A DNA stretch of 64,000 nt, taken from NCBI GenBank assembly GCA_040876265.1, contig JBBDPN010000001.1, positions 246,208 through 310,207 on the forward strand. Direction: 5' to 3'. The translations under genes were made by a program, and so were the position numbers. A model generated the notes under the pieces. The model did not search any database, was not told the DNA's origin, and saw nothing but the letters and a program-made list of their open reading frames with translations. The DNA comes from Candidatus Woykebacteria bacterium (lineage in GTDB: Bacteria; Patescibacteriota; Microgenomatia; Woykebacterales; RBG-16-39-9b). Of the stretch, positions 15,959 through 61,727 are shown in pieces. The stretch's first letter is position 1. Each line of letters starts with the position of its first letter.

Positions 15959-17222
15959 TAGCTTTTAGATTATCAAAGCCGCTGACAACAGTCAAAAAAT
16001 CCCGGTTGCGAAGATTCCTGTGGTATGTTATAGCAAATCGATGAGACTCGTCTCTCATTCTCTGGACAAGTTTCAAAGCCGGATTACTACGATCCAGCCT
16101 CAAGGGATGAGGCTTACCTACTTGGTAAATTTCTTCTAACCTCTTTGCTAATGAAATTACCGGAATATCCAAATGGTTTTTCCCCAAGACTCCAATAGCA
16201 GAATTTAATTGGCCTTTGCCACCATCTATGACGATCAAATCCGGTCTCTGCCAATCGTTTTTAAACCGCCTCGTCAAAACCTCTGCGATCATTGCCGTAT
16301 CATTTATACCCTTCACTGACTTTATTCTGAACCTTCTGTAACTATTATGATCGGCGATTGCCTGGGAAAAAACAACCATGGACCCAGTTGCCTCTTTTCC
16401 ACGAATATTTGAAATATCGTAACACTCAATTCTCTCAGGGTCCTCCGAAAGATTTAAAACAGCAGCCAACTCTTTCAGCTCTCGTTCTCTGGTCTCCTGT
16501 AACCCTAGCCCCAAATCTTCTATATCTCGGTAAACTTTAGTCACATAGTTTAGGGAATCGAGTTGCTTTTGAATTTGTCCTGCCTTTTCAAACTCCAGGT
16601 TTCTTATAGCGCTTTGCACTTCTTGCATCAGACTTCTCGTTACCTTGCTAGTTTCTCCCCTTAGAAACATAACCAGCTTTCTGATATTCTTCCGATATTG
16701 CTCTGGTGTAGTAAGGCCAACACAAACACCTGGACAAAGACCCAAGTGATAGTAAAGACAAGGCCTTTTTTGATTGGGGCTACAGTTACCAAAGCGAAAT
16801 ATTTTTCGTAAAATCTTAATTGTCGTTCTGACCTTTGTTGCCGATGGGTAGGGCCCAAAATAAATCTTGGCGCCTTTTAAATCGCGTTTTCTAGCTGCTT
16901 TTACCTTTGCATATTGGTCGTCAGTAATTTTAATATAAAGGTAGTCTTTATCATCTTTTAGTTGGCTATTAAAGGCGGGTTTAAACTTCTTTATTAGGTT
17001 GGACTCAAGTATAAGGGCCTCTATATCAGAATCAACGCTTATAGTTTCAATCTTCTTTACCTTAGAAAGCATTGACATGTTTCTCGGATCTGTGTTGTTC
17101 TGCCTAAAATGGGATTTAACTCTGTTTTGGATGTTAATTGCTTTACCTATGTACACAGAATTTCCTTCTGCGTTTTTGAAAATGTAAACTCCAGAGTTTT
17201 TTGGTAGATCGGCTACTCTCAT
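15939..17222 (-). CDS. uvrC: Excinuclease ABC subunit C (short form without C-terminal HhH)
   Basis: GIY-YIG start (GVYIFKN..YIGKA), Cys-rich CLYYHLGLCPGVC, a UVR domain, and an RNase-H-like endonuclease domain. Only 427 aa. Confidence 0.8.
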   Translation of the reverse strand: MRVADLPKNSGVYIFKNAEGNSVYIGKAINIQNRVKSHFRQNNTDPRNMSMLSKVKKIETISVDSDIEALILESNLIKKFKPAFNSQLKDDKDYLYIKITDDQYAKVKAARKRDLKGAKIYFGPYPSATKVRTTIKILRKIFRFGNCSPNQKRPCLYYHLGLCPGVCVGLTTPEQYRKNIRKLVMFLRGETSKVTRSLMQEVQSAIRNLEFEKAGQIQKQLDSLNYVTKVYRDIEDLGLGLQETRERELKELAAVLNLSEDPERIECYDISNIRGKEATGSMVVFSQAIADHNSYRRFRIKSVKGINDTAMIAEVLTRRFKNDWQRPDLIVIDGGKGQLNSAIGVLGKNHLDIPVISLAKRLEEIYQVGKPHPLRLDRSNPALKLVQRMRDESHRFAITYHRNLRNRDFLTVVSGFDNLKANEKKVS

Positions 17223-17247
17223 ACGTCTATTTTAACATGAGGGTAGG

Positions 17248-19134
17248 TTATTTTTTGCGGTTTTTTAATAGTTTTGGGGCCCAAAAACCACCTAGAAGTA
17301 ACATAACTAATATGAACAATAGGGCTTGCTGAAACCCGAAAGTGAAAAACGCCTTAACGAGTACTTCAGTATCAGCAGATTTATCCACTTTTGTTGCTCC
17401 ACCAGTTAGATTTAGTTTGACATTAACACGACCTTTTGTGGAGTTAAACAAATCACCGGCTCGAATCTTAAATTTAAAAATTCTTTCCTCAAACGGAAAA
17501 ATCAATGGTAGATTCACTTCTGCCCTACCAAGCAGATCTATTTTTTCTCCAGCCAAAGTCAAACTGCCGCCTGTAAAGGTAATGCCACTTTCATTTTTTA
17601 TAGTTACGGTAAGTTCGACTGGAAAACCGGCAAATGCTTGGTCAGCTTCAACTTTGAGTCCAACATCTGGTTTAAATTCCACTGCCTCTTTTACTGCAGT
17701 AACTTCAATATTTTCGGCTAAGGAGGCTAATTGACTCAGATTATCCAGGTTATCCCCTGAGTTGCTGTAAAAAAGAGCTACTCTATCAGAAAAATTTTCA
17801 CTTCTATAATCGGCGCCGGTAGTTCTTGACCAGGTAGGGTCAATGTTGATCCAAATTTTCTTGTCAGTATCGTATATTTGCGCCCAAACGATCATCTTAT
17901 CTGTATTCAATGGGTCACCAACAAAAACCGGGGTACTCTGGCTAGAAGACTCAATTGTAAATCCTAAAACCTCTCTTGATGGGATACCGGCTGCTTTTGT
18001 TAAAGCAGTAAATAAATCAACAAATCCCAGGTTTGTTGTTCGTCCACCAGCACGAAGAAGTTTTGCTGCGCCTTTTCTTTGCTCCTTACCTGAGTTGAAG
18101 GCCGCCGTATCGAATTTCAAATACTTGATGACAAATTCGTGGATTGCCTGTGCGTTTTTTAGTTCCTTGGCCTTTTGCTGAATCAATACATCCTGGGCTT
18201 GAACATATTTCCCGCCTTTTTTATATAGTTCGACTTCTGCTTCTGTGAGGGCGCCTGGAAAGGTGAACCTACCATCAGCTCCAATAACCTTCGCGATACC
18301 TTCAATCTCAACTTGTTGGAGAGTCCCAGATCGCACTACGTAATGAGCTGAAATATTATCCTCGTTATCAACGCTCATTTTCGTTGGCCGAGGATTTAAT
18401 GCCCTAAATAAAATTTGTTGCTTTTGGGACTCTGGAGGTATAAAAATGGTAAATTCCTTACTAAGTAAATTCTTATTTTCAAAAGGTACTTTTAGTTTAA
18501 ATTTTATTTCCTGCTTGTCACCAAAATTTACCAAAATATTCTTTCCAAAAGCGCCCGACTTGTTGTAAGAGATACGGGTCTGGTTTTTACCATAGCTTAT
18601 TTTTTCAGCTGTCGGCTCGATTGTAAATATTTTTCCAAAATCTTTTGGTGCAGTAATTGTAAGTTTGTACGATGTTACTTTCTCATCCGTAGCAATCTGG
18701 GGAACGGTTACATACCAGATTAATCCTTGTCTTTCAGCCAAATCTTCAATTGTGTATGAAAGGTTAAGAACTGCGGTCTTGTTTTTACCAATAACCTCAT
18801 TATTGATCTTGGCGACTATTAACGAAGAAGGTTCACTCTTGACCACTTTTATCGCCATATTTCCGAGCGAATCCTTTCCAGATACTCTCTTTATCTTGGT
18901 AGAGTTTATTCGCAAGCTGTATTCCGAAGCAAAACAATCGCTAACCAAATTTTTCAAACTTACTATTTGAGACACTTTGGCGTCACCCTTTTTATCGAAG
19001 GAAAAGGTGAGTTTGTACGAACTGGAAAAGATTTTAGAGGCGTCGTCACAGCTCGCACTGAGAACTGACTGAAGTGGCGCAAGTGTAAAAATGAATAAAG
19101 CTGAGGTTAGGAGTGCAAAAACCGCCTTCTTCAT
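17248..19134 (-). CDS. Signal-peptide- and C-terminally anchored surface protein with a degenerate transglutaminase-like region
   Basis: Signal peptide and C-terminal TM. The central stretch ...TTNLGFVDLFTALTKAAGIPSREVLGF... is like the transglutaminase core, but the catalytic Cys is absent. Confidence 0.35.
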   Translation of the reverse strand: MKKAVFALLTSALFIFTLAPLQSVLSASCDDASKIFSSSYKLTFSFDKKGDAKVSQIVSLKNLVSDCFASEYSLRINSTKIKRVSGKDSLGNMAIKVVKSEPSSLIVAKINNEVIGKNKTAVLNLSYTIEDLAERQGLIWYVTVPQIATDEKVTSYKLTITAPKDFGKIFTIEPTAEKISYGKNQTRISYNKSGAFGKNILVNFGDKQEIKFKLKVPFENKNLLSKEFTIFIPPESQKQQILFRALNPRPTKMSVDNEDNISAHYVVRSGTLQQVEIEGIAKVIGADGRFTFPGALTEAEVELYKKGGKYVQAQDVLIQQKAKELKNAQAIHEFVIKYLKFDTAAFNSGKEQRKGAAKLLRAGGRTTNLGFVDLFTALTKAAGIPSREVLGFTIESSSQSTPVFVGDPLNTDKMIVWAQIYDTDKKIWINIDPTWSRTTGADYRSENFSDRVALFYSNSGDNLDNLSQLASLAENIEVTAVKEAVEFKPDVGLKVEADQAFAGFPVELTVTIKNESGITFTGGSLTLAGEKIDLLGRAEVNLPLIFPFEERIFKFKIRAGDLFNSTKGRVNVKLNLTGGATKVDKSADTEVLVKAFFTFGFQQALLFILVMLLLGGFWAPKLLKNRKK

Positions 19135-19147
19135 AAATGTAGTAGTG

Positions 19148-19540
19148 TTAATTCTCTTTTGTCCAGGTTTTAACTTTCGCCGAAATATCTTCAGGGGTAA
19201 ACTGGGACTTTATAAGGTATTCGTTGGCACCTAAGGTAAGACCTTTTTCAATCAAATCCTCCTCATCAAAATTTGACAAGATAATGATCGGTGTCGATTC
19301 TGTCTTTGGATTTTTTCGCAATTTTTTAAGTACATCAAAACCGTCCATCTCCGGCATTTTTATGTCTAAAAAAATTAATTCAGGGCTTTCCTTAAACGCT
19401 TTATCCAACCCTAACTGTCCTCGATCAGCCACTAAAACCTCGTACCCATCCAACCCAAGTTTCAGCTTGTAAAGCTGAGCAACCTCCTGTTCGTCCTCAA
19501 TTAAGAGTACTTTTATTTTATCTTCTTTTCCCTCTGCCAT
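19148..19540 (-). CDS. Response regulator, receiver domain only (CheY-like)
   Basis: Has DD..D phospho-acceptor (LIFLDIKMPEMDG) and the conserved K. Confidence 0.8.
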   Translation of the reverse strand: MAEGKEDKIKVLLIEDEQEVAQLYKLKLGLDGYEVLVADRGQLGLDKAFKESPELIFLDIKMPEMDGFDVLKKLRKNPKTESTPIIILSNFDEEDLIEKGLTLGANEYLIKSQFTPEDISAKVKTWTKEN

Positions 19541-19567
19541 AAGCGGAAGTTAGTCTATCACAAAAAT

Positions 19568-21832
19568 TTATTTACCCGCAACCAAGGGAATATAAAAATT
19601 AAATGTTGTACCTGCACCCACCCTGGAATCAACCCATATTTTGCCGTCGTGAAGCTCGACTAAAGACTTGACTATAAACAAACCAAGTCCAGTCCCTTTA
19701 TTTTCCTTTAAATATGACCCCGGGACTTGCTGAAATTTATCAAATATTCTGGAACGCATTTTTTCTGGAATCCCAAACCCGCTATCCTGGACACTAAAAA
19801 AGACCTTACCGTTGCTTTTATAACAGCCGATACGTACATCACCCCCATTTCCGCTGTATTTAATTGCATTGTCGATTAAGTTTACTAAAATCTCTTTGAA
19901 CCTATTTCTATCCACTTCGACTAAAAAACCGTCAATTTTGCTATTGATCTGCGAATCCAGATTGAGTCTTACACCCTTCATAGCAGCTATGGGGGTAAAC
20001 TCTTCCCTCACTTCATTAATAATGTTCAGTACTGAGACTTTGCGTAAATTCAATCTCAACCTACCCTCTTCGATTCTGGAAACATTAAGTAGCTCCGCAA
20101 CTAGTTTTGTTAGCCTGGTAGTCTCATTTTGAACCTTTTGTAGTACTGTTAGAAAATTTGTCCGGGCGTTTTCGTTTTTTAAATCTCCCAGATCTCCATT
20201 TAGCAACAGGCTTAAGTAACCATTGACGATAGTTAAAGGGGTTCTAAGTTCGTGGCTGGCCATGGATACAAACTCACTTTTAGACTTTTCCAATTCTTTA
20301 ATCGCAGTGATGTCCCGGACAATACTAATAACTTGTTCGATGTTGCCTTTCGCGTTGAATATTGGGTTGTAACTGACGCCAACCCAAATCTCCTTTTTAT
20401 CTTGACTCGTATGTAAGTGCTCGTCATAAGGAACCGCTTCGCCTGTAACAAACACTTTTGTAACTGGGTCAAAATCTGGATAGTAGTGACCAAATCTATC
20501 GTGACATTTAAAAACGTCATGGTAGTATTTGCCGACCATCTCTTCCTCACTAGAAGCTGCCATTAATTCGCAAGCGCTGTTTGTTCTAATTATTTTTAGA
20601 CTTTGGTCAAATATAAATACCGCCTCTTCAACGTTTTCAAATATAGCCCTCATTCTGTTTCTCTGTCTCTCGACCTCCAAAAGCTGCCTAGATATTTTCT
20701 CGGCTTGGTTTTTCAGAAGAGTGACGTCTCTAAAGCTTGCGCTCATCGCAACAACAGTACCCTCCTTATCTTTGATTGGAACGTAATTGGCTTCGATATA
20801 TTTTGGTGGTTTTGAGTGCAGCTTCATCAGGATATTGGACACTGGTTTTCCAGAATAAACTCTTTCTTGAGTTTTCAAAGAATTGTCGTACCTTTCTAAA
20901 TAGTATTTAAAATATTTACGTCTATTTTTTACTATTTTTTCTCTAGCCACACCAACCAAATTAGTTTTAACCGAAAACAATTTTTTAAGTGAAGGGTTCA
21001 TGAATAAAACCCGACCGTCCTTATCATAGAGAGCTAGACCTTCCTTCACTGTTTTATAGATAGCGTCTAGCTTTTTCTTCTCCTCTTGCAAATCCAGTTC
21101 TGCTTCATGGCGCTCCGTTATATCCCTGATCAGAGCCATAATCGCTTTTCGGCCCCTATGATTTATTAATGACGCACTTATTTCAACTGGCACCTTCTTC
21201 CCCATTTTTGTCAAAAGATCAACTTCGTAGGTCTTGGGTACCGGCTTACCGGACAACCTTTTTTTGTGGATCTGCAGTGCCAAGCTTCTAAACTCAGGCG
21301 CGATGAATTTGGTAAACTGCTTCCTAATTGCATCTGAGAGCTTAAAACCGGTCAGTTTTTCCATCCTTGTATTTGCAAATTTCAAAAGACCATCCTGAAT
21401 TATTACAATTCCATCATTACCTTTTTCTACTAAAGTCGCATACCTCCCCTGAGACTCCATTAGCGCTCTCTCAGTCTTTTTGTGAGCTCTTAATTCTTTT
21501 CGTAAGGCCTTACCACTAAGAGTAGTTTTCTCTGTACGAGCCTCAATTTTTTTAGTGAGCTTTTTATTAAGTTCTTTTAGTTCGCCAACATTTCCTCTAA
21601 TAACCTGCAGTATTTCGTTGACACCAGTGAAAACTGACGTGAATTCGTTTTCTTTTCCGGGTAGTTTGAGTCGTTTTGAGAAATCTCCTACTGCAGCTTT
21701 CGAGAAAACCGGAAATAATTTAGCAATTTGCTTTGCAACGAAGTTTTTGTATTTTTTTAATTCTTTATTTTTGGGCTCATATTTATTATCAACCATCTTT
21801 ACTTTAGTAACCTTTAAAATTGTATTCCTCAT
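19568..21832 (-). CDS. Sensor histidine kinase with PAS/PAC domains
   Basis: HisKA H-box ASHELRTPLT, then N, G1 and G2 boxes (DSGFGIP...GTGLGL), and at least two PAS repeats. The track ORF begins at a TTG. The start used here is the first ATG (MRNTILK). Confidence 0.85.
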   Translation of the reverse strand: MRNTILKVTKVKMVDNKYEPKNKELKKYKNFVAKQIAKLFPVFSKAAVGDFSKRLKLPGKENEFTSVFTGVNEILQVIRGNVGELKELNKKLTKKIEARTEKTTLSGKALRKELRAHKKTERALMESQGRYATLVEKGNDGIVIIQDGLLKFANTRMEKLTGFKLSDAIRKQFTKFIAPEFRSLALQIHKKRLSGKPVPKTYEVDLLTKMGKKVPVEISASLINHRGRKAIMALIRDITERHEAELDLQEEKKKLDAIYKTVKEGLALYDKDGRVLFMNPSLKKLFSVKTNLVGVAREKIVKNRRKYFKYYLERYDNSLKTQERVYSGKPVSNILMKLHSKPPKYIEANYVPIKDKEGTVVAMSASFRDVTLLKNQAEKISRQLLEVERQRNRMRAIFENVEEAVFIFDQSLKIIRTNSACELMAASSEEEMVGKYYHDVFKCHDRFGHYYPDFDPVTKVFVTGEAVPYDEHLHTSQDKKEIWVGVSYNPIFNAKGNIEQVISIVRDITAIKELEKSKSEFVSMASHELRTPLTIVNGYLSLLLNGDLGDLKNENARTNFLTVLQKVQNETTRLTKLVAELLNVSRIEEGRLRLNLRKVSVLNIINEVREEFTPIAAMKGVRLNLDSQINSKIDGFLVEVDRNRFKEILVNLIDNAIKYSGNGGDVRIGCYKSNGKVFFSVQDSGFGIPEKMRSRIFDKFQQVPGSYLKENKGTGLGLFIVKSLVELHDGKIWVDSRVGAGTTFNFYIPLVAGK

Positions 21833-21924
21833 ACAAATACCACCCAACGTATTGAGTAGATTAAATACTAATCAAACTTTAAGTAAATATTATAGTAGTA
21901 CTATAAAGTGGCTTTTGAGGAAAA

Positions 21925-24774
21925 TCAAGAGGCAGCTATACGATCGGCCGCCAATAACTTCTTGAGGTAACCACCAGTGTAAGATTTTTCGTTCCTAGCC
22001 ACGGACTCGGGCTGGCCGCTAGCAACCACCTGACCACCAGAGTCTCCTCCATCAGGGCCCAAGTCAATAATCCAATCGGCGGTTTTTATAACTTCTAAAT
22101 TATGCTCTATCACGACCACAGTGTTGCCAATATCCACAAGACGATGGAGAACGTTTAGGAGGTTTTCTATATCGGCAAAATGCAACCCTGTCGTCGGTTC
22201 GTCAAGTATGTACAAAGTTTTCCCGGTACTTTTTCGAGACAGCTCCGTGGAGAGTTTAACTCTTTGGGCTTCCCCTCCAGAAAGAGTTGTGGCTGGCTGG
22301 CCCAACTTCATATAGCCTAGACCAACATCATAAAGAGTTGAAAGTTTATTTTTTATTGCCGGAATGTTTTTGAAAAACTTTAATGCCTCGGAAATAGTCG
22401 TATCTAAAACATCGGCAATTGTTTTGTCCTTGTAGAATATTTCTAAAGCTTCGCGGTTGTACCTTTTTCCGCCACAAACCTCGCAGGTAACGTAAACGTC
22501 AGGTAAAAATTGCATCTCAATTTTTACAGCTCCGTCACCCTGGCATGCTTCGCACCGACCCCCCTTAACATTAAAGGAAAATCTCCCTGACTTGTAACCT
22601 CGAATTCTAGCGACAGAGGTTTTCGCGAAAAGCTCTCTTACATGAGAAAAAGCCCCTGTGTAGGTAGCTGGGTTTGACCGAGGTGTCCTTCCAATGGGTG
22701 ACTGATCAATATCAACGACTTTATCGATAAATTCTATACCAGTTATTTTTTTAAACCTACCGGGTTTTATTTTAGAGTTGTAAAAATAATTGGAGAGAGC
22801 TTTATGCAGTATGTCCTCGGCTAGACTGGACTTACCACTACCAGATACACCAGTTATGCAGACAAATTTGCCCAAAGGGATACTTACGTTAATATTTTTT
22901 AAATTATTCTCCATTGCCCCGATAATTTGCAGGTCCTTGCCGATACCACTTCTGATTTTTGCTTGCCTCATTACTTGACGTTTTCCAGAAATATATTCTC
23001 CTGTAAGCGAGTTTTTGCTCTTTACAATTTCAGCCGGTGGCCCGGAGTAAATTACTTCACCGCCCTTCTCTCCAGCAGCCGGACCGATATCAACTAGCCA
23101 GTCCGAAGATTCTATAGTCTCTTTATCATGCTCAACTACGACAACACTGTTACCGAGACCTCTAAGATTTTTCAGCGTACTGATTAATTTGAGGTTATCT
23201 TTTTGGTGCAAACCAATTGAGGGCTCATCTAGGCAATAAAGTACCCCAGAAAGACCCGAACCTATTTGACTTGCCAATCTTATTCGTTGGGCCTCACCAC
23301 CAGCTAAAGTTGCGCTTGTTCTATTTATGGCCAGGTAGTCCAGACCAACGTCGACAAGAAATTTAAGCCTAGCCTGTATTTCTTTTAGTACCTGTTTTAC
23401 TATTTGCTGCTCTTTTTCGGTTAAAGTTAGAGACCAAAACCAACTCTTCACATCTGAAATTGACATACCCGAGATCTCTCCAATTGATTTCCCATTCACA
23501 CTTACATATTGGGCTTCTTTTTTCAATCGACTACCTAGGCAAGTGCCGCAGATTTCTTCCCGCATGTATTTTTGAATTTCCCGTCTGGTCCAATCACTAT
23601 CGGTTTCTTTATATCGACGCATCAGCTCTGGGATCACCCCCTCAAAGCTTGTGTTAAAACTTATCTGTTTTCCAAACCGATTTCTCCCTGACACAACAAA
23701 GGCTTCCGAACTTGATCCGTAAAGAATTACCTTTAATGTTGTCTCGGGAAGTTTACCCAACGGACTACTTAGAGAAAAACCCAAATGATCTGCCAGCGCT
23801 TCCAATCGTCGACTTGTCCAAGTATCGTGAGCCAGGAGTCTTTGCCAAGGAATAATAGCCCCTTCTGTGATTGAAAGCTTTCTATTTGGGATGACTAAGT
23901 CTGGATCAACTGTAAGTTTTGTGCCAATCCCTTGACAGCTTTCGCAAGCTCCGCGAGGAGAATTAAAAGAAAAGGTTCGTGGTTCTAGTTCCGGAAGAGT
24001 GACTTCGTGATCAGGACAAGAGTACTTCTCGGAAAACGTCCGATCTTTTTTTAACGTTGGGCCGCTTACTACTACCACACCGTCGCCCAAACGTAAAGCA
24101 GTTTCGACTGATTCGGTGAGCCTTTGTCTATCCACTGGTAGTTCTATCCTATCGACAACTACTTCTATATCATGTATCTTGTATCTATCCAAGGATGGCA
24201 CTTCACCTATCTCGAAAACTCGACCATCTACCCTCACTCTAACAAACCCCTTTTTTCTCAAATCGCTAAAAATCTCCTCGTAAATACCTTTCCGACCTTT
24301 AATAACCGGCGCTAAAATTACTACCTTTAATCCTTTTTTACCACCGATTTTCATTATTTGATCAACAATCTCTTGCGGGGACTGGGCCTCGATCTTCTTA
24401 CCATCGACTGGGCAATGTGGTGTGCCTATCCTGGCCCAAAGCAATCTCATGTAATCGTAGATTTCAGTGATCGTACCTACGGTAGATCTGGGGTTTTTTG
24501 AAGCGCTTTTCTGGTCAATAGAAATTGCTGGCGAGAGGCCCTCAATTTGATCCACATCTGGCTTTTCCATGAGACCTAGGAACTGCCTGGCGTAAGCGGA
24601 AAGAGACTCTACATAGCGTCTTTGGCCTTCGGCGTAGAGGGTATCGAAAGCTAGGGAACTTTTCCCGGAGCCGCTAATCCCGGTTATAACTACGAGTTTA
24701 TTTTTTGGGATTTCTAAACTGATATTTTTGAGGTTGTGCTCGCGGGCACCTTTTATAATTATCTTATCCTGCAT
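21925..24774 (-). CDS. uvrA: Excinuclease ABC subunit A
   Basis: Two ABC ATPase modules ([10 protein letters not shown] / [10 protein letters not shown]), zinc fingers and an LSGGE signature. Confidence 0.95.
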
Positions 24775-24871
24775 CTTTACTCCAAATAGTGATCAGTTAG
24801 TTTACTACGCTTTGCAAATTTTGACAAGAGTAGTAGAATACTCCTCACGAAAAAAGGAAGGAGGGATTACT

Positions 24872-25171
24872 GTGGACACCATCGAGAAACAGTGGTCGCT
24901 AGTATCTGGTCACGGCTCTGTTCTTTTCTACATCGCCGTGTGCCCTGGTTGTACCACCAAAGACATTGCTGACGCCATGTCGCTGACCCGTCGGACTGTC
25001 TGGGGTGTAATCGGAGATCTTCGCCGTAAGAAGATGATTAACGTCCGGAAGGAAGGTCGCCGCCATCACTACACAGTCAACCTGAATGACGAGTCAAGGT
25101 TCACCCACCCTATCATGGATTGGCCCATGAATCTTGTCCTGGGCGGGATAGTTCATCAGCACTCTAAATAA
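24872..25171 (+). CDS. Winged-HTH DNA-binding protein (MarR/wHTH-like), foreign GC-rich
   Basis: GTG start 7 nt after AAGGAGGG. Sequence ..TTKDIADAMSLTRRTVWGVIGDLRRKKMINVRKEGRRHHYTVNL.. About 52% GC, against roughly 38% for the flanking genes. Confidence 0.5.
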   Translation: MDTIEKQWSLVSGHGSVLFYIAVCPGCTTKDIADAMSLTRRTVWGVIGDLRRKKMINVRKEGRRHHYTVNLNDESRFTHPIMDWPMNLVLGGIVHQHSK

Positions 25172-25760
25172 ACTAAAGATAGGAGATGATCCGTGATATA
25201 ATCTAAACACCAGAGAGACATCATTCGAACTTCCTACTCATGGAGCCGAGCCCAGGCTTGGTAGCCTCTATCTTCGAAAAGAGATTCCCTGAAGGGTGTC
25301 TGGGTTGGGCTCCACCATACCGACTCCGGGGTGAGACTGGGTCCAAGCTCGCGACATTGTGGGCATCCACCACGGGGTCGGTTCCAAAACCTTGAAGAAA
25401 GTTGAGATATCATCATGGACGTGAGAGACAGGAAAACCCCTGTCTCACTGAGGGAAAAGGCACAGTTACCTCAGGTCGCAGACGGCCCCCCTTGCGGTTG
25501 ACCTCCTCTCACGTCCTCCAAACTTTGGGTTCCATCGCGTTGTCCGCAACGACAGAGTAGGCCAGTGGCAATGTGGGACCACCGGCGGGAGTGTTGGGAG
25601 CTTTGGTTCTCAGAAGATGCACCTTCAGTGCCTGGGCTCAAGACTCTCCCGCTCCAAATCGGCTTCAAAACCGTTCTCCTGGGAGTGCCCAACCGGCATA
25701 ATGGAGGAGATGGTTTTGAGGAGTCAACAACGGGTTTAACGGTGGACACACTAACGCTAA
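25172..25760 (+). ncRNA. Candidate large structured RNA or structured 3'UTR, class unknown
   Basis: About 590 nt at roughly 55% GC with no credible ORF. Many strong local hairpins (for example GTGAGAGACAGG..CCTGTCTCAC) and long-range complements (GAGCCCAGGC at ~25246 against GCCTGGGCTC at ~25640). Same strand as the wHTH ORF. Ends at an intrinsic terminator. Confidence 0.3.
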
Positions 25761-25800
25761 GGTTCCAGTATCGCCTCCCTACTGGAACCTTTCTCTATTT
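25761..25800 (+). terminator. Intrinsic terminator closing the GC-rich unit
   Basis: GGTTCCAGTA-tcgcctccc-TACTGGAACC followed by TTTCTCTATTTCT. Confidence 0.55.
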
Positions 25801-27822
25801 CTAAGTAATTTTATTAGCTTCTTTTGCTGTCACAGTTTTTGGAACTTTGAGTTGTTGGTTTTTTAGCTCTAGCATTTGATCGCGGAGGATCGCGGCGCGT
25901 TCAAAGTCCGTTTCTTTAGCAGCCGCCATCATCTCTGCTGTCAAATCTCGGATAAGCCTTTTCACCTGATCTTTCGGTACTTTTGTTAGATCTAATTCCT
26001 GCGTAGTCTCTGCTTCAGGCTGCAATTCCTTTAATCTTTCGCCGATATCGCGAATGGTTTTTTGGATAGTTGCTGGAGTGATATTGTGCTTTCTGTTGTA
26101 AGAGAGCTGAGTTTTTCTTCGACGACTTGTTTCCTCTATTGCCCCCTTCATAGATTTGGTAACTTCGTCTGCATACATGATTACTTTTCCCTCCACGTGT
26201 CGTGCGGCTCTACCAATGGTCTGAACTAGTGAGGTCTTGCTGCGTAAAAACCCTTCCTTATCCGCGTCAAGAATGGCAACTAAAGTAACCTCGGGAAGGT
26301 CTAAACCCTCTCGGAGTAAATTAATTCCCACCAAAACATCGTATTTACCAGTCCGTAAATCTCTGAGGATGTCGATTCGCTCCAATGTATCAACCATATG
26401 ATGAATGTACATAACCTTCATTTCTCTCTCCTGAAGATATTCAGTAAGATCCTCAGCCATTCTTTTTGTTAGAGTAGTAACCAAGACACGCTGGCCCCTT
26501 TTCACTCGGGCCCGAATTTCTTTTATCAAATCTGGAATTTGCCCTTCCGTATCCCTTATTTCTACCTCCGGATCCACAATTCCAGTTGGACGGATGATTT
26601 GTTCTGCAACTTGCTTTGAGATTGAAAGTTCATAGTCCCTAGGGGTAGCTGAAACATAAATAATCGGGCCGATTTTTCGCATCGCCTCCTCAAACGTGAG
26701 CGGCCTATTATCCATGGCAGAAGGAAGCCTAAAACCGTTCTCAATTAGCAACTCTTTGCGTTTTTTCTCCCCATGCCACATCCCTCTTATCTGAGGAATA
26801 CTCATGTGCGATTCATCAATGAACGTAATAAAGTCTTTTGGAAAATAATCTAGTAGGGAAAAGGGGGGCTCGCCCGGTTTTCGACCGTCAAAAAACCGAG
26901 AGTAGTTCTCTATCCCCTTAACAAAGCCCACCTCACGCAGCATCTCAAGATCATAATTAACCCTGTTTGTAATTCTCTGAAGCTCAACCAATTTGTTTTG
27001 CTTTTTTAAACGACTGCCCCACTCATCGAACTCTTCTTGTATTTTTGCCAGGGGATCGTAGGAAAGATCGACCGGGGCGTTATAATGGCGGGCCGGAAAA
27101 ACCATCAACTCGTTCATTTCTTCGATTCTTTCGAAGCTAATCGGGTCTACCTTAGTAATTTTCTCCACCTTATCACTAAGTAGTGAAACTCTGACGGCGA
27201 ACTCTTCGTAGGCTGGATGCAACTCCAACGTGTCTCCCTTTACCCTAAAGGTGGATCTTTTCAAATCCTGATCGTTTCGCTCATACTGCATGTGAGCCAG
27301 GGTTTCTTTGATTTTTTCTATTGGTATTATTTGATCCTTGAACAACGTGAGCGTACTTTGTCGATAGGCATCAGGCGAACCAATATTGTAGATACAGGAG
27401 ACGCTGGCGACTATCAAAACATCTCGTCGGGTAAGCAAGGATTTTGTTGCGGCAAGTCGCAGTCTATCAATCTCTTGGTTTATATCTGAATCCTTTTCAA
27501 TATAAAGATCGATCTGTGGGACGTATGACTCGGGCTGATAATAGTCGTAGTAAGATACAAAATATTCCACAGAGTTGTTTGGAAAGAACTCGCGAAATTC
27601 GGCAGCAAGTTGGGCTGCCAATGTTTTATTGTGAGCAATAATAAGGGTGGGTTTGTTTAGATTGGCCACTATATTGGCCATAGTGAAGGTTTTTCCAGTA
27701 CCGGTAGCACCAAGTAGGGTCTGGTGTCGCAAACCCCTCTCTAGACCGTCTGAGAGCTTTACAACGGCTTCAGGTTGGTCACCTGTCGGTGGCCAAGGAG
27801 CTTTTAATTCAAACTTAGACAT
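25801..27822 (-). CDS. uvrB: Excinuclease ABC subunit B
   Basis: Helicase motifs (GATGTGKTF), beta-hairpin, and a C-terminal UVR domain. Confidence 0.95.
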   Translation of the reverse strand: MSKFELKAPWPPTGDQPEAVVKLSDGLERGLRHQTLLGATGTGKTFTMANIVANLNKPTLIIAHNKTLAAQLAAEFREFFPNNSVEYFVSYYDYYQPESYVPQIDLYIEKDSDINQEIDRLRLAATKSLLTRRDVLIVASVSCIYNIGSPDAYRQSTLTLFKDQIIPIEKIKETLAHMQYERNDQDLKRSTFRVKGDTLELHPAYEEFAVRVSLLSDKVEKITKVDPISFERIEEMNELMVFPARHYNAPVDLSYDPLAKIQEEFDEWGSRLKKQNKLVELQRITNRVNYDLEMLREVGFVKGIENYSRFFDGRKPGEPPFSLLDYFPKDFITFIDESHMSIPQIRGMWHGEKKRKELLIENGFRLPSAMDNRPLTFEEAMRKIGPIIYVSATPRDYELSISKQVAEQIIRPTGIVDPEVEIRDTEGQIPDLIKEIRARVKRGQRVLVTTLTKRMAEDLTEYLQEREMKVMYIHHMVDTLERIDILRDLRTGKYDVLVGINLLREGLDLPEVTLVAILDADKEGFLRSKTSLVQTIGRAARHVEGKVIMYADEVTKSMKGAIEETSRRRKTQLSYNRKHNITPATIQKTIRDIGERLKELQPEAETTQELDLTKVPKDQVKRLIRDLTAEMMAAAKETDFERAAILRDQMLELKNQQLKVPKTVTAKEANKIT

Positions 27823-27858
27823 AAGCTCCCATTTTATCTTAAATCAACCAATTAATAA

Positions 27859-27875
27859 AACCTCAGGTGTAGGTT
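27859..27875. promoter_or_regulatory. Candidate operator (AACCT-N7-AGGTT inverted repeat) in the divergent uvrB-lexA region
   Basis: The inverted repeat aacctcaggtgtaggtt lies about 35 nt from the uvrB start. It is proposed only because of its position. The SOS-box consensus for this lineage is not known to me. Confidence 0.2.
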
Positions 27876-27979
27876 GATATACTTTTACCCAGTTGACAAA
27901 TAACCGAAAATTTGACGATAATATAACCAGAAAAAAGACGAAGAAATTACTTATTAGCTCTTAAAGGTAATTTAATTAT

Positions 27980-28597
27980 ATGGCCCCAGTAATTTACAAA
28001 AGAGAACGTGACCTTCTAAATTTTATCTCCCAATTTATGCAAAAGCGTGGTTTTGCGCCTACTCTTGCTGAAATCTGTGATGGCTTGGGTTTAAGATCTC
28101 CAGCCACTGTCCATGAACACATCCAAAATTTAATCGATAAAGGAGTTTTGAAAAAAGATGAAGGCGTTAGAAGAGGTTTGGAGATCGTAGATCAGAAGAT
28201 CATGGGTTGGGTACAAAATATAGTCGAGATTCCTTTGGTGGGTAGGATCGCGGCTGGCGAGCCAATTGAAGCAATTAGCGACCACACTTCGGTCGTAAAT
28301 GTCCCACCCGAGATGGTTGGGAAAAAGAAGTGTTTTTCCCTGCAGGTACGCGGTAACAGTATGGTTGAGGCGGCCATACTCGACGGTGATTTCGTAATTT
28401 GTGAAGAAACAAGCGAGGCTAATAATGGTGAGATCGTTGTGGCGCTGCTCAATGAAAATTTTGCAACTCTGAAAAGATTTTTTAAAGAGCCTACTCACAT
28501 CCGACTGGAACCAGCCAACTCCTCCATGAATCCGATTATTACCAAAAATGTCACTATTCAAGGAAAGGTAGTTGGAGTAATCCGTCGGTACCACTAG
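27980..28597 (+). CDS. lexA: LexA repressor (S24 peptidase)
   Basis: N-terminal wHTH, Ala-Gly cleavage site (RIAAGEPIEA), and Ser/Lys dyad (RGNSM ... KR). Confidence 0.9.
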   Translation: MAPVIYKRERDLLNFISQFMQKRGFAPTLAEICDGLGLRSPATVHEHIQNLIDKGVLKKDEGVRRGLEIVDQKIMGWVQNIVEIPLVGRIAAGEPIEAISDHTSVVNVPPEMVGKKKCFSLQVRGNSMVEAAILDGDFVICEETSEANNGEIVVALLNENFATLKRFFKEPTHIRLEPANSSMNPIITKNVTIQGKVVGVIRRYH

Positions 28598-54654: not shown

Positions 54655-54731
54655 GGCCCCGTCGTCTAGTGGCCTAGGATACCTGGTTTTCATCCAGGAG
54701 ATCGCGGGTTCGAATCCCGCCGGGGTCACCA
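54655..54731 (+). tRNA. tRNA-Glu (anticodon UUC), CCA encoded
   Basis: GGCCCCGTCGTCTAGTGGCCTAGGATACCTGGTTTTCATCCAGG...GGTTCGAATCC..GGGGTCACCA. Confidence 0.8.
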
Positions 54732-58019: not shown

Positions 58020-59318
58020 TTAGTTTATGGTTGCGGTTTCTCTATCTATCGGTATTTCAGGTTTGCTTTCTTCAACTATCTTAGTTTTTACCCGTGCCTT
58101 TTCATCTTTAGAAATTTCATCTGCCATATCATCAACTATCGAAAAGACTTCCAGCTTTAAATCTTCAAGATTACCTTTTGTTTTTTCTATCCCAGTACCA
58201 ATACTAGATAGAGAACTTTTTATAGATGAAATCGAGTTTATCTTACTTCTTATTTGTCCTAGATAACCTTCCAATTTAACTAGATTAACCTTTTTATCTT
58301 CGGTTTTTATTTCGTTGAGCGCTTCCAACCTAGCAAACTTATAGGCAACCTCTAGGGCGGTGGAATCCTTGGTTTCTTTATCAAAAACGCATAATATTCT
58401 TCCACCTGGATAGGCTCTAAAGTTTCCACTCTCTCCAGGAGCGTTTTCTAATTTACTAAAGACTCCTATCGCGACTTGAGCATCCCTATTTTGTTTAGCT
58501 TCATCTAGTTCTTTCAAAATTGAAGGAAGGGTTTTCTGTTGATCCTTCGCTTCCAGTACAATACTCAAACTGTTTCCACCTGAATGGTGCGGATTTATCT
58601 TCGACAGCACATCACCCGTCTTAGAATTAAGAATTTTTCCATTTATGTTACTAGTATCAATGACATTATCATCTAAAATTTTTGCTATATTGTTGATAAT
58701 CTGTAACACTAAGTCTTGATAAACAACACCCTTAGCCGTTCCTTTTTCTTCAACCTCTGCCACAGCCTCTTTAATTTTGAGAGCTTTTTCGATATTGTCT
58801 ATTTTATCCGTCAATTCTTTTTTTAATCTAAATATTGGACTACCTGGATCTGAACTATCTAGTAGTTTATATATTACAGATCCGTCACCTTCAAAGTGCC
58901 TTTTGAAAATATCGGAAAGCTTACCTAGGGCGCTGTTCCTTTGGTTCTCATCAAAAAGATCCTGTAGCTTACCACCTTCGCCAAGATACTCTTTTAAAAC
59001 AAGAGGCATAACACCGTTTTCGCTAAAAATTTTATCTAGTCTATTGTCTATTTCTGTGGTGGTATCCTCTAAAAGTTTTTCAACGTGATTTTTTACCTTG
59101 CTAAATTCTTTTTCTACATAATCTACATTTTCAGTTACGCCCACATTTTTCATAGCAATCAAACCCACCTTTAGGGCCTTCCTTACTGTTTCTGCCTTTT
59201 CCTTTTCGGCTAAACCTTCAACTATTGAGGCTACTTCAGCATCCTCAATAATCAAATCTGAAATATATACCTGATTTTTCTCGACTTTTAATTTCATAAG
59301 GTGTTTATTATAAGACAC
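58020..59318 (-). CDS. RmuC-like coiled-coil protein with PD-(D/E)xK-type C-terminal domain
   Basis: 432 aa. Coiled-coil N-terminal half. The C-terminus (KGVVYQDLVLQIINNI..., GDVLSKI...SIVLEAKDQQ, VAIGVFSKLENAPGE) resembles the RmuC nuclease-like core. A TTGAAC-16-TTATAAT promoter lies just upstream. Confidence 0.35.
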   Translation of the reverse strand: MSYNKHLMKLKVEKNQVYISDLIIEDAEVASIVEGLAEKEKAETVRKALKVGLIAMKNVGVTENVDYVEKEFSKVKNHVEKLLEDTTTEIDNRLDKIFSENGVMPLVLKEYLGEGGKLQDLFDENQRNSALGKLSDIFKRHFEGDGSVIYKLLDSSDPGSPIFRLKKELTDKIDNIEKALKIKEAVAEVEEKGTAKGVVYQDLVLQIINNIAKILDDNVIDTSNINGKILNSKTGDVLSKINPHHSGGNSLSIVLEAKDQQKTLPSILKELDEAKQNRDAQVAIGVFSKLENAPGESGNFRAYPGGRILCVFDKETKDSTALEVAYKFARLEALNEIKTEDKKVNLVKLEGYLGQIRSKINSISSIKSSLSSIGTGIEKTKGNLEDLKLEVFSIVDDMADEISKDEKARVKTKIVEESKPEIPIDRETATIN

Positions 59319-59453
59319 TTAAGCCAGGCGTTCAATAGCCAGCACAGTAACACTTCACAATCTTGACAGTCTCTTTTAGACTTTCCATTAATGCGCTATC
59401 TCAATGACGAGCCAATAATGAATGGTGAAAAAGGGCCAATTTATTAGTCTGGG

Positions 59454-59609
59454 CTAGTCTTTCCAGACATATTTGTATCCTATTGGCGCAATCGGTTTTA
59501 TAGGCCGAATTGGTTTAATCGGTTTGATTGGTTTGATTGGCTGGATTGGCCTAATCGGCTTTATAGTCTTTATTTTGAATTTATTATCCCTTACCAGTTT
59601 CCACGGCAT
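59454..59609 (-). CDS. 51-aa (KPI)n tripeptide-repeat micropeptide
   Basis: Translation by hand: MPWKLVRDNKFKIKTIKPIRPIQPIKPIKPIKPIRPIKPIAPIGYKYVWKD. A GGGGGTGA SD-like sequence lies 8 nt upstream. Same strand as the lexA-like and DUF3892 genes, and directly downstream of them. Confidence 0.35.
   Translation of the reverse strand: MPWKLVRDNKFKIKTIKPIRPIQPIKPIKPIKPIRPIKPIAPIGYKYVWKD
59481..59570. repeat. Ten tandem 9-bp repeats (consensus aatcggttt/gattggttt)
   Basis: Directly visible in the sequence. These units encode the KPI repeats on the minus strand. Confidence 0.75.
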
Positions 59610-59636
59610 AACTTATTCACCCCCAACCCAAATTCG

Positions 59637-59930
59637 TTAGATGGGACATTCGTCCAAAGCAAGTAAATTGTTTGGATAATCTCCATCAGCGGTTGTTTTA
59701 ATGTATTTATTCCCTTTAGCACTAATAGCAACGATGACTTTCACAGGGTCGTTGTTAACATCAACGTAAAAATCATACTTACCGTTTTCTATGTAGTTTA
59801 TTGCTTCCTGTTGGGTAATCTTCCATCGACTACCGTCTGGATTTACACCTCCAACATGGGTAATTGCCTCGTATGGGCTGTTTCTATTGTCTTTGTGGAT
59901 ACAAGATATTCTTACTGACATCTGATACAC
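59637..59930 (-). CDS. DUF3892 domain protein
   Basis: Has ITHVGG....G..W..T..EAI..IE.G...FYV......V.V......G..Y..T..DG...NNLL.L.EC, the DUF3892 consensus. Confidence 0.65.
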
Positions 59931-59937
59931 TTCCTTA

Positions 59938-60564
59938 TCAATCTAAATTTGGAATAGTTGTAACGACTACCCCCTGAATTCTAAAGTTGCCTTCTAAAAT
60001 TATTGGCTTGTGAGATTTGTTTGACGATCTGGGTTTCAAAACCACCACATTTCCAGTACGTTGAAATTCCTTGATTGTTGCATCATCATCAATAAGGGCT
60101 ACAACTTTATCCCCGTCTTTTGCTACAGCTTGCTGTCGGATTAGTACCAGGTCGCCATCTTTAATTCCAACCTCATCCATGGAATCACCACTTACCTTTA
60201 GCAAGAAGTACTTAGATCCAGGTTCTGCTATGGTCGTGGAAACAGGTAAATACCCTTCAACGTTTTCCTCTGCAAATAGTGGATTACCACATGAAACCAT
60301 ACCAACTATCGGTACATCAATTGTTTGATATATGTGCTGTCCCAGATCCGGGTTTAAAACTAGTTTGTAATGCCCGTCTTCAAATTTTTTGATGATGCCT
60401 TTTTGTTGCAGGGTAAAGAGTATCTCCTGAACAGATTTTATTGATTTCGACTCCAAAAGCCCCATCAGCTCCCTTATTGAGGGGCTTCTTCCCTTATGAA
60501 CTGTGTGGTTTCTAATATGTTTTATTGCCTCTATTTGTTTCGGCGTGAACTCATCGGGGTTCAT
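59938..60564 (-). CDS. Second LexA-like S24-peptidase repressor (UmuD-like Cys-Gly cleavage site)
   Basis: N-terminal wHTH (about 75 aa). Cleavage region ...VSCGNPLF with Cys-Gly, as in UmuD, in place of the Ala-Gly of the housekeeping LexA. Ser nucleophile in SGDSM and Lys in ATIKEF. Confidence 0.8.
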
Positions 60565-60566
60565 AT

Positions 60567-60582
60567 TGGTACGATTGTACCA
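60567..60582. promoter_or_regulatory. Palindromic operator TGGTAC-gatt-GTACCA directly upstream of the lexA-like start
   Basis: 16-bp near-perfect palindrome located 3 nt upstream of the ATG, overlapping a TACAAT -10-like hexamer. The GTAC-N4-GTAC architecture resembles the cyanobacterial-type LexA box RGTAC-N3-DGTWCB. Confidence 0.45.
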
Positions 60583-60748
60583 TAGAAGTCAAATTTTGGG
60601 AAGTAGCATTTTTTATACTGTCTCATTTGTCTCACTTCGGTATCCTCAGTGTAAACACTTCGACTTCACTCAGTACAAGCATTTAGCCTTGACAATGAGA
60701 CACTATTCCTGCGACTATAGATGCGGAAGGGTTCAACACCCATATGCT

Positions 60749-61117
60749 TCACCAACCAACTGCGGCGTTTTGGATGATTTCTTTTCGTGTCACTTTGCCC
60801 TGGATACCCATCTCTATTGCAACTACGTCAATTCTGTGAGCCTCAGGCAAACTGCCTTTGTGCGACATCCGAAAATATTCTCCCACTTTTTGGATAGAGT
60901 GTAGCTTACGTTTGCCAACAGCCTCTTCTGGCAACCCAAATTCCTTACTCCAACGGGTTTTTACCTCTACAAATACCAAGGTGTCTTTATCTTGAGCGAT
61001 TATATCTATTTCGCCCAGGCGGCAACGAAAATTTTTTACTAAAATTTTATAACCTTGGCAGCGCAGCAGTGAGACTGCAATGGCCTCGCCTTTAGCACCC
61101 AAATCTTTCTTATCCAT
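60749..61117 (-). CDS. yraN: YraN-family (UPF0102) endonuclease
   Basis: Has GE.IA...L...GY.IL..N.R...GEIDIIA......LVFVEVKTR. Confidence 0.8.
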   Translation of the reverse strand: MDKKDLGAKGEAIAVSLLRCQGYKILVKNFRCRLGEIDIIAQDKDTLVFVEVKTRWSKEFGLPEEAVGKRKLHSIQKVGEYFRMSHKGSLPEAHRIDVVAIEMGIQGKVTRKEIIQNAAVGW

Positions 61118-61727
61118 TTAAGTACGCCGACAGGTTGAAAGACTTGCGGTGAATTTTAGAAAGTTTGTAATGAGCAATTGCCTGCTGATGCGCTTTAGTA
61201 CCATAACCTTTGTGCCTGTGTAGTTCGTACATCGGAAATCTAGTAGCGAGACGCTTCATCAAATTATCTCGGTAAACCTTGCCTACTACTGAAGCTGCGG
61301 CTATCGAAGCACAGTATTTATCCCCACTCTTTAATGCGATTTGGATATCCCTTGGCCAATTTTTAATATAAAATGCATCTATCAGATACCTGTCACAATT
61401 CACGACAAGATTTTTGACTGCGTACTTAAAGGCTTTTTGAGTAGCATTGCCAATACCAATTTTATCAATCGTTGGCACCTGGACTACTCCAATGCCAATC
61501 TTACCTACTGCTCGGATTTTTTTAGCTAATTCTTCCCTAGCGTGTGGGAGTAAAAGCTTAGAATCAAAAATCTTAAAGTGGGGCTCAAACATAGAAGGGA
61601 AAATCACCGCTGCTGCTACCACTGGTCCGGCCCAAGCTCCTCGGCCGACTTCGTCAATACCAGCGATTTGCCTGGCACCATCCTGCCAAAGCACTTTTTC
61701 GTAATCAAAAGTGGCCTCTATTTTCAT
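61110..61727 (-). CDS. rnhB: Ribonuclease HII
   Basis: Has IAGIDEVGRGAWAGPVVAAAVIF, DSK, and the rest of the RNase HII active-site series. Confidence 0.9.
   Translation of the reverse strand: MKIEATFDYEKVLWQDGARQIAGIDEVGRGAWAGPVVAAAVIFPSMFEPHFKIFDSKLLLPHAREELAKKIRAVGKIGIGVVQVPTIDKIGIGNATQKAFKYAVKNLVVNCDRYLIDAFYIKNWPRDIQIALKSGDKYCASIAAASVVGKVYRDNLMKRLATRFPMYELHRHKGYGTKAHQQAIAHYKLSKIHRKSFNLSAYLNG

Follow-up and report, generated by a model that had tools for sequence, protein, structure and literature searches.

What does a second LexA-type repressor do at the head of a small operon whose two other products are a protein of the DUF3892 family and a peptide made almost entirely of Lys-Pro-Ile (KPI) repeats? 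We addressed this question for a locus in a 64-kb stretch of DNA (64,000 nucleotides, hereafter the window) on a 532,215-bp contig from a metagenome-assembled genome (MAG) of Candidatus Woykebacteria, a lineage of the Candidate Phyla Radiation. The repressor gene, which we call lexA2, the DUF3892 gene and the KPI open reading frame (ORF) are listed with their control elements in Table 1. We cautiously favour the reading that they make up a self-contained, horizontally mobile, DNA-damage-inducible cassette within a defence island, as the comparisons of sequence and gene order described below would suggest. The original prediction, a damage-inducible cassette thrown by a LexA-like switch, agrees with the sequence layout, the conserved operator, the conservation of the block and its setting in a defence island; what did not hold up is the combination of these three genes as a fixed system.

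A second repressor with a winged helix-turn-helix (HTH) and an S24 peptidase domain had been predicted besides the canonical lexA at 27980, and it is indeed present. LexA2 matched the Pfam families LexA_DNA_bind (PF01726, 2.5e-8) and Peptidase_S24 (PF00717, 7.2e-30), and it scored 156.6 bits on the NCBIfam lexA equivalog model TIGR00498, well above the cut-off of 110.95, and 66.7 bits on the UmuD model NF007621, below the cut-off of 110. It also matched PHROG 4, a transcriptional repressor family, and its matches in PADLOC-DB 2.0 were weak AbiEi/CARF noise only. The protein aligned end to end with E. coli LexA structures (1jhh, E 2.7e-26), and in this alignment Cys92-Gly93 of LexA2 corresponds to Ala84-Gly85 of the E. 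coli protein, Ser128 to Ser119 and Lys165 to Lys156. The Ala-Gly bond (Cys-Gly in UmuD) and the Ser-Lys dyad have an established role in RecA-stimulated self-cleavage, and G93, S128 and K165 were invariant across 116 aligned sequences of the LexA2 clade. Judged from its sequence, LexA2 is a member of the LexA family, with the defining features in place wherever they could be checked, and it carries every feature expected of an autocleavable, autoregulated repressor. Canonical lexA1 (27980-28597), which lies divergent from uvrB in a cluster with uvrC, uvrA and uvrB (15939-28597), encodes an Ala-Gly site and scored 199.5 bits on TIGR00498. At ~29-32% identity to this canonical protein, LexA2 is by sequence comparison a true paralog, the second or third LexA of its genome.

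The 115 closest homologs of LexA2, in a clade of ~2,700 members, are 55-89% identical to it, ~208 aa long, and come from Omnitrophota, Saccharimonadales, other Patescibacteria and Deltaproteobacteria MAGs. The cleavage site had been described as UmuD-like, and the Cys-Gly bond is there, but it is no special peculiarity of this protein. Cys-Gly is the norm of the clade (92/115, with Ala-Gly in 23/115), a close ortholog on the metagenomic contig L087 has Ala-Gly, and Cys and Ala interchange at the P1 position among orthologs.

The predicted palindrome lies immediately upstream of the lexA2 ATG, is 16 bp long and perfect, and is separated from the start codon by 2 nt rather than the 3 nt first given. 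It does overlap a -10-like TACAAT, as had been proposed; the hexamer lies inside the palindrome and is preceded by TG, forming an extended -10, and the promoter scan returned TTCCCA-17-TACAAT with this TG. Since TACAAT ends 9 nt 5' of the ATG, the lexA2 transcript would be leaderless or nearly leaderless. The strict motif GTAC-N4-GTAC occurred once in the window against 0.25 expected, and 23/100 shuffles contained at least one match. The single occurrence alone is not significant; its position and its conservation give it significance. At the same position the sequence is TGGTACAATCGTACCC in L088, a contig from another metagenome, and TGGTACACTTGTTTCA in L087, with the ATG 2 nt further on in both. 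Among 24 loci of the LexA2 clade with a definable start codon, 11 had [AG]TAC-N3-5-GTA[CT] within 40 nt of it, against 0.18 expected, and none of 2000 shuffles reached 11.

The form of the motif varies within the clade, which mostly uses ATAC-N3-5-GTAT. Two loci, L109 (GTATACAATTGTATAC followed by ATG) and L114 (GTATACAATCGTATAC followed by ATG), have the core TACAATYGTA in common with the window, abutting the start codon, and many relatives show the succession TTGACA, 17-nt spacer, TAnnnT, 7-11 nt, ATG. Taken together, the enrichment of the operator at start codons and the promoter spacing of the relatives argue that an operator placed on a leaderless start is the design of the family. More distant canonical LexA genes in the same scan had Gram-positive-type GAAC-N4-GTTC boxes instead. 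The palindrome is on this evidence the putative binding site of a LexA2 dimer. It was not scattered over unrelated sites but was confined to this single position in the window, and the GTAC-type motif was absent from the lexA1/uvrB intergenic region (27823-27979) and from the uvrA promoter. Within these 64 kb of the 532-kb contig, the distribution points to a private regulon of LexA2. A relaxed form of the motif gave 4 sites over the whole window where a mononucleotide shuffle predicted 14; this null overestimates, and the result was not used as evidence.

Both small genes lie directly 3' of lexA2 and run in the same direction, in keeping with the original prediction. The stop codon of lexA2 is separated by 16 nt from the DUF3892 ATG, and the DUF3892 stop by 27 nt from the KPI start, and both gaps carry a Shine-Dalgarno (SD)-like motif. 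The true start of the DUF3892 gene is the ATG with AAGGAAG 5' of it rather than a GTG at 59930, and the KPI start is preceded by GGGGGTGAATAAGTT. No terminators were predicted between the three genes, which by their arrangement are one tightly spaced co-directional unit.

A repetitive ORF of 51 codons could in principle be no gene at all, that is, a 9-bp tandem DNA repeat (a binding-site array or a product of slippage) that happens to be open by chance. The KPI ORF does lie over a period-9 array (Tandem Repeats Finder), the opposite strand is also open as a 55-aa (IGL)n frame (59473-59640, plus strand), and the peptide (MPWKLVRDNKFKIKTIKPIRPIQPIKPIKPIKPIRPIKPIAPIGYKYVWKD; isoelectric point 10.7, net charge +11.5, 10 Pro, 11 Ile, no hydrophobic segment) stayed below threshold in Pfam, NCBIfam, PHROGs and PADLOC alike, its Pfam matches being low-complexity noise. 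We nevertheless find this explanation scarcely credible. L088 encodes the peptide as MPWKLIKDDPFKIKPIRGIRPIQPIKPIKPIKPIRPVKPIAPIGYKYVWKD, with GAGGAGG 5' of it, and the two versions differ by 21 synonymous and 8 non-synonymous codons. Counted by codon position, the differences between the window and L088 are 9/4/23 for KPI, 8/9/45 for DUF3892 and 18/6/77 for lexA2, so that KPI has the same excess at third positions as the flanking genes. In L088 a stop codon breaks the antisense frame, which is most likely a by-product of the repeat. Both the non-repetitive ends of the peptide and the ribosome-binding region of its gene (GGTGAATAAgTT-ATG) are kept even in unrelated contexts. By these signs the KPI ORF is a real gene that evolves like coding sequence.

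A database search gave 27 homologs of 49-82 aa with the conserved ends MxWxL and PIAPIGYxYxW, which yield the consensus MxWxLRKKPxGIK..(KPI)n..RPIKPIAPIGYxYYWKD with M1, W3, L5, G44 and W49 invariant. A profile search of 1.84 billion representatives returned 46 matches at E<=1e-10, roughly 50 full-length clusters, the other matches being repeat-only; such a family also argues against a chance reading frame. From these sequences KPI is a conserved, unannotated micropeptide family of ~50 aa, often missed by gene callers. Its members were mostly found without LexA2 and without a DUF3892 partner. The KPI gene lies 5 nt after a 128-aa DUF2188 gene in L261 (3610-4153), and after an HTH-Peptidase_M78 fusion and a Beta_protein gene in L262 (1587-4186). 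In L259, beside a Prok-E2/ThiF-JAB system, it follows an HTH gene and a 300-aa gene; in L252-257 it is flanked by an HTH-Panacea gene on one side and an MmeI-like Type IIG restriction-modification gene on the other; and in L258 it stands between a PD-(D/E)XK gene and GmrSD plus EcoRI-methylase genes. We also observed KPI repeatedly as the final small gene in cassettes that start with an HTH or M78-type regulator or carry DUF2188.

The DUF3892 protein of the window matched PF13031 at 2.8e-19 (69.8 bits, gathering threshold 22.3), and C7, G24-G25, Y73, K75, D79 and C92 were invariant in 21 sequences of the family. Its genomic neighbourhoods were sampled at 80 loci from 534 relatives across many phyla, 76 of them non-redundant, and a housekeeping context was seen at none. 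A LexA2-like neighbour was present at 1/80 (L084). An XRE-type HTH gene lay near ~10 of the 76 non-redundant loci, usually divergent, and HExxH peptidases cluster alongside; Pfam identified HTH_3 in L031 and Peptidase_M78 in L055 and L053, and HsdM-type methylases lay near 12 DUF3892 loci. Operons of DUF3892 and DUF2188 regulated by CapH/CapP have been published (Lau et al., bioRxiv 10.1101/2022.04.27.489752, citing Burroughs & Aravind 2020), and by sequence the HTH and M78 neighbours seen here match that arrangement. A different switch was found in the Firmicute Cohnella xylanilytica, whose DUF3892 promoter (L049 4890-4935) reads CGAACATACGTTC-TTGACA-GGAACGAATGTTCGGAA-TATGCT, with two Gram-positive LexA boxes, CGAACATACGTTC and GGAACGAATGTTCG, placed over the -35 and the spacer. 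Such a promoter would place DUF3892 in the host SOS regulon of that organism. The Gram-positive box alone gave a signal in the scan of regions 5' of DUF3892 genes, and E. coli-type (CTGT-N8-ACAG) and alphaproteobacterial LexA boxes were not enriched. Viewed across genomes, DUF3892 appears to stand under three damage switches, namely host LexA (Cohnella), dedicated LexA paralogs and HTH/M78 pairs.

How far is the cassette conserved as a unit? In blastn the block given in Table 1 corresponds to 233-1446 of L088, with 80.7% identity over 1219 nt. In L087 homology spans window positions 59639-60637, ending exactly at the DUF3892 stop codon, after which an SNase-like ORF stands in place of KPI. The closest homologs of the DUF3892 protein (84-85% identical) lie directly 3' of 208-aa LexA2 orthologs in these two metagenomic contigs. 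A locus in a Margulisiibacteriota genome (L084, 1360-1927) has a LexA2-clade gene, a divergent 69-aa DUF3892-like gene (PF13031 4.6e-5) and a standard 93-aa DUF3892 gene. The tandem DUF3892 genes of L084 echo the 'two DUF3892 proteins' of a published Sulfitobacter CapH/CapP operon. DUF3892 was found at 0/80 metagenomic LexA2-clade loci. Synteny in relatives, which the original prediction had expected, is therefore partial: the whole block recurs in L088 and the lexA2-DUF3892 pair in L087 and L084, but there is no fixed three-gene system. The three genes are modular, and the full cassette is conserved as a unit, but rarely.

Another contig, L001, is very likely from the same genome as the window. 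In the region 5248-7292 it encodes a second DUF3892 paralog (P0006, 74% identical to that of the window) and, divergent from it, a third LexA-family gene (206 aa, Ala-Gly, 160.6 bits on the lexA model). Together with the window cassette, this locus indicates that the pairing of a LexA-family gene with DUF3892 arose at least twice, very likely in one genome. L001 further holds an intergenic palindrome, GAAACTGTTTC, that is unlike the LexA2 operator, as well as 104-aa and 61-aa orphan ORFs and two degenerate LexA/S24 fragments (6884-7292), adjoining Alw26I-type restriction-modification genes.

The genes that lie directly 3' of other members of the LexA2 clade are varied, and many are defence genes. 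They include DUF2188 genes (PADLOC candidate PDC-S16) in L092, L095, L097 and L119; cyclases of the cyclic oligonucleotide-based anti-phage signalling system (CBASS) in L096 (2e-142), L122 (4e-69) and L118 (1.5e-23); a SAVED-HNH effector in L110 (1e-128); a 2TM/PycTM effector in L116 (9e-47); the PADLOC candidates PDC-M30A (L101) and PDC-M48B (L106); and DNA methyltransferases (L099, L109), a MazE-like gene (L094) and a ResIII helicase (L121). Y-family polymerases occupy the same position in L107 and, with a UmuD-like gene, in L108. This cargo suggests that the LexA2 clade may be a LexA-type portable regulator of defence systems.

The cassette of the window lies in a stretch of 36-39% GC (54.8-60 kb), compared with 42-45% nearby. 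Its neighbours are three housekeeping genes (yraN, rnhB and rplS), an orphan gene of 432 aa and a gene for a 1027-aa Type IIG/Type ISP-like restriction-modification enzyme (PADLOC 8e-276), which follows a tRNA-Glu (54655-54731) in a region extending to 57997. By composition and content the low-GC stretch looks like an acquired island, and so a probable defence-island setting for the cassette. Integration of the island at tRNA-Glu was considered and rejected: no tRNA-derived direct repeat bounds 54.7-60.7 kb, so no att sites can be claimed. Likewise, the 432-aa gene (58020-59318, minus strand) was rejected as a fourth member of the operon, as it has its own promoter (TTGAAC-17-TATAAT, 59335-59307), lies outside the block conserved in L088 and has no homolog in any fetched locus; it had no match in Pfam, NCBIfam, PADLOC or PHROGs. 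Its likely true ATG is at 59297, 9 nt after the -10, so that it also looks leaderless. A 431-aa gene 5' of DUF3892 in L002, tried as a possible homolog, gave no phmmer match to it.

Table 1. Features of the lexA2 locus, in window coordinates.
Feature	Position	Strand	Length	Description
lexA2	59938-60564	minus	208 aa	LexA-family repressor: N-terminal winged HTH and C-terminal S24 peptidase
DUF3892 gene	59637-59921	minus	94 aa	ATG at 59921, SD AAGGAAG
KPI micropeptide gene	59454-59609	minus	51 aa	Lys-Pro-Ile repeats, SD-like GGTGAATAAGTT
Putative LexA2 operator TGGTACGATTGTACCA	60567-60582		16 bp	Perfect palindrome; coding strand TGGTACAATCGTACCA
Promoter-like site	60574-60602	minus		TTCCCA (60602-60597), 17-nt spacer, TACAAT (60579-60574), TG at 60582-60581
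Upstream motif GTGAGACAAATGAGACAGTAT (tandem TGAGACA)	60615-60635	minus		Upstream edge of cassette
Conserved cassette	59409-60626	minus		Promoter/operator, lexA2, DUF3892, KPI and ~45 nt 3' tail; blastn against L088

The upstream motif GTGAGACAAATGAGACAGTAT was found 5' of lexA2 in the window, L088 and L087, and is one arm of a ~110-nt element (window 60614-60719) with the inverted arms ATACTGTCTCATT and AATGAGACACTAT. The element recurs at 75% identity in the second DUF3892 island (L001, 11526-11632), where a toxin-antitoxin-like operon with a PIN domain lies ~140 nt 3' of it. The 166-nt intergenic stretch has a fold z-score of -2.5, and an Rfam search of 59000-61200 gave no match. The element may be a regulatory sequence that is repeated, a small RNA or a scar resembling a miniature inverted-repeat transposable element.

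These observations can be assembled into a working model of the cassette as a damage-inducible switch. In unstressed cells a LexA2 dimer would sit on the 16-bp palindrome, covering the extended -10 and the transcription start, and would keep the lexA2-DUF3892-KPI operon low and autoregulated, as its layout and conservation suggest. RecA-coated single-stranded DNA, formed upon DNA damage or phage replication, would stimulate LexA2 to cut itself at Cys92-Gly93 via Ser128/Lys165, and the cleaved repressor would leave the operator; this step is what the conserved residues and established LexA chemistry lead one to expect. DUF3892 and the strongly cationic, Pro-rich KPI peptide would then be co-produced as the output of the module. 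By analogy, the two are most likely a minimal anti-phage or stress effector/adaptor pair, because the same LexA clade is wired likewise to CBASS cyclases and effectors, DUF2188 (PDC-S16) and other defence genes, and because the analogous CapH/CapP damage switch, too, has DUF3892 and DUF2188 as its cargo. A bolder version, which we hold to be decidedly doubtful, would make the LexA2 clade an undescribed third family of portable damage/phage sensors for immunity, beside CapH/CapP and CapW/BrxR, that wires activated RecA directly to CBASS, DUF2188, DUF3892 and further cargo through a leaderless operator on the start codon, with DUF3892 and KPI as a minimal two-protein effector in which KPI acts inside the cell (e.g. 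on the ribosome or nucleic acids), much as proline-rich antimicrobial peptides do, and imposes dormancy on infected or damaged cells.

Several observations weigh against the model of a damage-inducible defence cassette. At the promoter, the -35 of lexA2 (TTCCCA) is weak, and a conserved TTGACT hexamer (60589-60594, minus strand; TTGACA in L087 and L088) lies 7 nt 5' of the -10 TACAAT, a spacing too short for it to serve as the -35 of this -10, so that it stands as an unexplained element. No clear terminator was found 3' of KPI. The gene for the presumed inducer, recA, is absent from the 64-kb window, so the inducer is not seen there. The predicted model of DUF3892 had no structural relative in PDB or BFVD, so that the fold yields no mechanism, and DUF3892, KPI and the 432-aa neighbour had no match in PADLOC-DB 2.0, none of them being a recognised defence gene. 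Some proteins of the clade may be the sole LexA that their organism has, and the polymerase and UmuD-like cargo fits a classical SOS/mutagenesis role as well as it fits defence.

This last point leads to an alternative that we judge somewhat unlikely, namely that the cassette is a classical SOS damage-tolerance or checkpoint module, with DUF3892 and KPI as small SOS effectors of the DinI/SulA/YneA type (modulators of RecA, or brakes on division or replication) and LexA2 as a LexA paralog that diverged after duplication and retained a regulon of a single operon. It is common for small, lineage-specific SOS effectors to have their genes beside lexA, B. subtilis yneA being an example. Host LexA appears to control DUF3892 in Cohnella through the two boxes over its promoter, and members of the LexA2 clade are also found in front of Y-family polymerases and of a UmuD-like/UmuC pair. 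Moreover, duplication, motif divergence and regulon shrinkage are the documented pattern of LexA paralogs, described by a duplication-divergence model (PMC8565304). A core repair function of this sort would not, however, be expected to show the patchy distribution of DUF3892. The cassette is also mobile, and the low-GC island that holds it has a restriction-modification gene next to it. CBASS, PycTM-like, SAVED-HNH, PDC-M30A and PDC-M48B genes lie behind other members of the clade, CapH/CapP regulators are common to DUF3892, DUF2188, CBASS and DISARM (defence island system associated with restriction-modification), and KPI genes sit in defence islands.

If the cassette were instead a mobile element's addiction module, or one resembling a toxin-antitoxin pair, with KPI or DUF3892 as the toxic product and LexA2 as the transcriptional gatekeeper that stabilises the island, then its compact, mobile and autoregulated form would be readily explained, as would the MazE-type antitoxin gene that follows one clade member. 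KPI is also extremely basic and Pro-rich, a composition seen in ribosome-targeting proline-rich antimicrobial peptides. We regard this as improbable, since searches of Pfam, NCBIfam, PADLOC and PHROGs linked neither DUF3892 nor KPI to any known family of toxins or antitoxins, the locus shows no evident protein antidote, and KPI and DUF3892 usually occur apart from each other and from LexA. Phages offer a further origin, in which LexA2 is a CI-like repressor and the small genes are morons left behind as an immunity remnant of a prophage or satellite. LexA2 matches PHROG 4 as noted above, DUF3892 matches phrog_8224 (a family of unknown function) and is present on 37 viral contigs, and one clade member lies on a viral contig (L172). 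Only one full-length close relative of LexA2 was found among 2.9 million viral contigs, 0/37 viral DUF3892 loci had a LexA/S24 neighbour, LexA2 scores as lexA and not as a CI-type repressor, and the cassette is flanked neither by an integrase gene or phage genes for structure or replication nor by att repeats; a prophage remnant is accordingly highly improbable.

Should the damage-inducible defence cassette prove true, the self-cleavage of LexA, the oldest damage sensor, would have been adopted by bacteria, reduced Candidate Phyla Radiation genomes among them, as a plug-in switch that travels with defence cargo, and this switch would offer a very compact, single-protein, leaderless design for an inducible promoter. 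The convergence of three damage switches on DUF3892 makes the proposal that it is a DNA-damage-induced effector directly testable for a widespread protein, and the KPI micropeptide is cheap to synthesise and test. The most interesting by-products of the analysis are the micropeptide family, which is undescribed, and the LexA clade with its linked cargo.

The closest functional parallel is CapH/CapP. In both, a repressor that senses DNA damage and is inactivated by proteolysis, as predicted for LexA2, stands beside small DUF3892/DUF2188 cargo, relatives of LexA2 carry DUF2188 and CBASS genes, and CapH/CapP regulators likewise serve CBASS and other defence systems. The two differ in construction. 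In CapH/CapP a separate M78 metallopeptidase cuts an XRE-type HTH repressor, whereas LexA2 unites the winged HTH and the S24 peptidase in one protein; the CapH/CapP pair is divergent from its cargo, whereas lexA2 is co-directional with and 5' of its cargo (the paralogous L001 locus is divergent). No HTH_3 or Peptidase_M78 gene lies in or beside the cassette, and the KPI peptide has no mention in the CapH/CapP paper (10.1101/2022.04.27.489752). By its sequence, the LexA2 cassette would work like a CapH/CapP module but is not a member of that group. The statement in the original prediction that no such system had been described must be narrowed accordingly: DUF3892 under a cleavable CapH/CapP switch is published, while the LexA-paralog version and the KPI family are undescribed in the literature searched. 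That literature contained no link between a LexA paralog and CBASS, DUF3892 or DUF2188, and an earlier description is possible.

Compared with E. coli LexA and the TIGR00498 family, LexA2 has the same domain architecture, cleavage site, Ser/Lys dyad and palindromic operator over its own promoter. It departs from canonical LexA in the Cys at P1, in an operator found only at its own promoter within 64 kb, and in its location in a mobile 1.2-kb cassette. The Cys-Gly scissile bond and S24 fold are also those of UmuD (Cys24-Gly25), but UmuD is without a DNA-binding domain and works with UmuC, whereas LexA2 has a full winged HTH and no Y-family polymerase or umuC gene adjoining it. The operator resembles the cyanobacterial LexA box RGTACNNNDGTWCB (PMC3091678) in its GTAC-N4-GT(A/T)C geometry, and GGTACAATCGTACC of the window fits 13/14 positions; LexA2 is not cyanobacterial, and we treat the resemblance as a lead.

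LexA paralogs that use a motif of their own and control a single operon are known from Pseudomonas putida, where LexA2 is found with imuA-imuB-dnaE2, and from Xanthomonas and Geobacter. The repressor described here is similar to these in being a diverged copy of LexA that regulates, as far as its predicted operator indicates, essentially its own operon through its own motif. It differs from them in that its cargo is DUF3892 and a micropeptide, not a mutagenesis cassette, and in that its clade reaches across phyla and carries defence cargo of various kinds, a distribution that suggests lateral transfer as a unit of regulator plus cargo. In this portability it recalls the WYL regulators CapW and BrxR (PMC9122588, PMC9122601), which front CBASS, bacteriophage exclusion (BREX) and many other defence systems in islands. 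Their fold and sensing are unrelated, with ligand or single-stranded DNA binding by the WYL domain on the one side and predicted self-cleavage of LexA2 on the other, so that the LexA2 switch, if true, would parallel both CapH/CapP and the WYL regulators.

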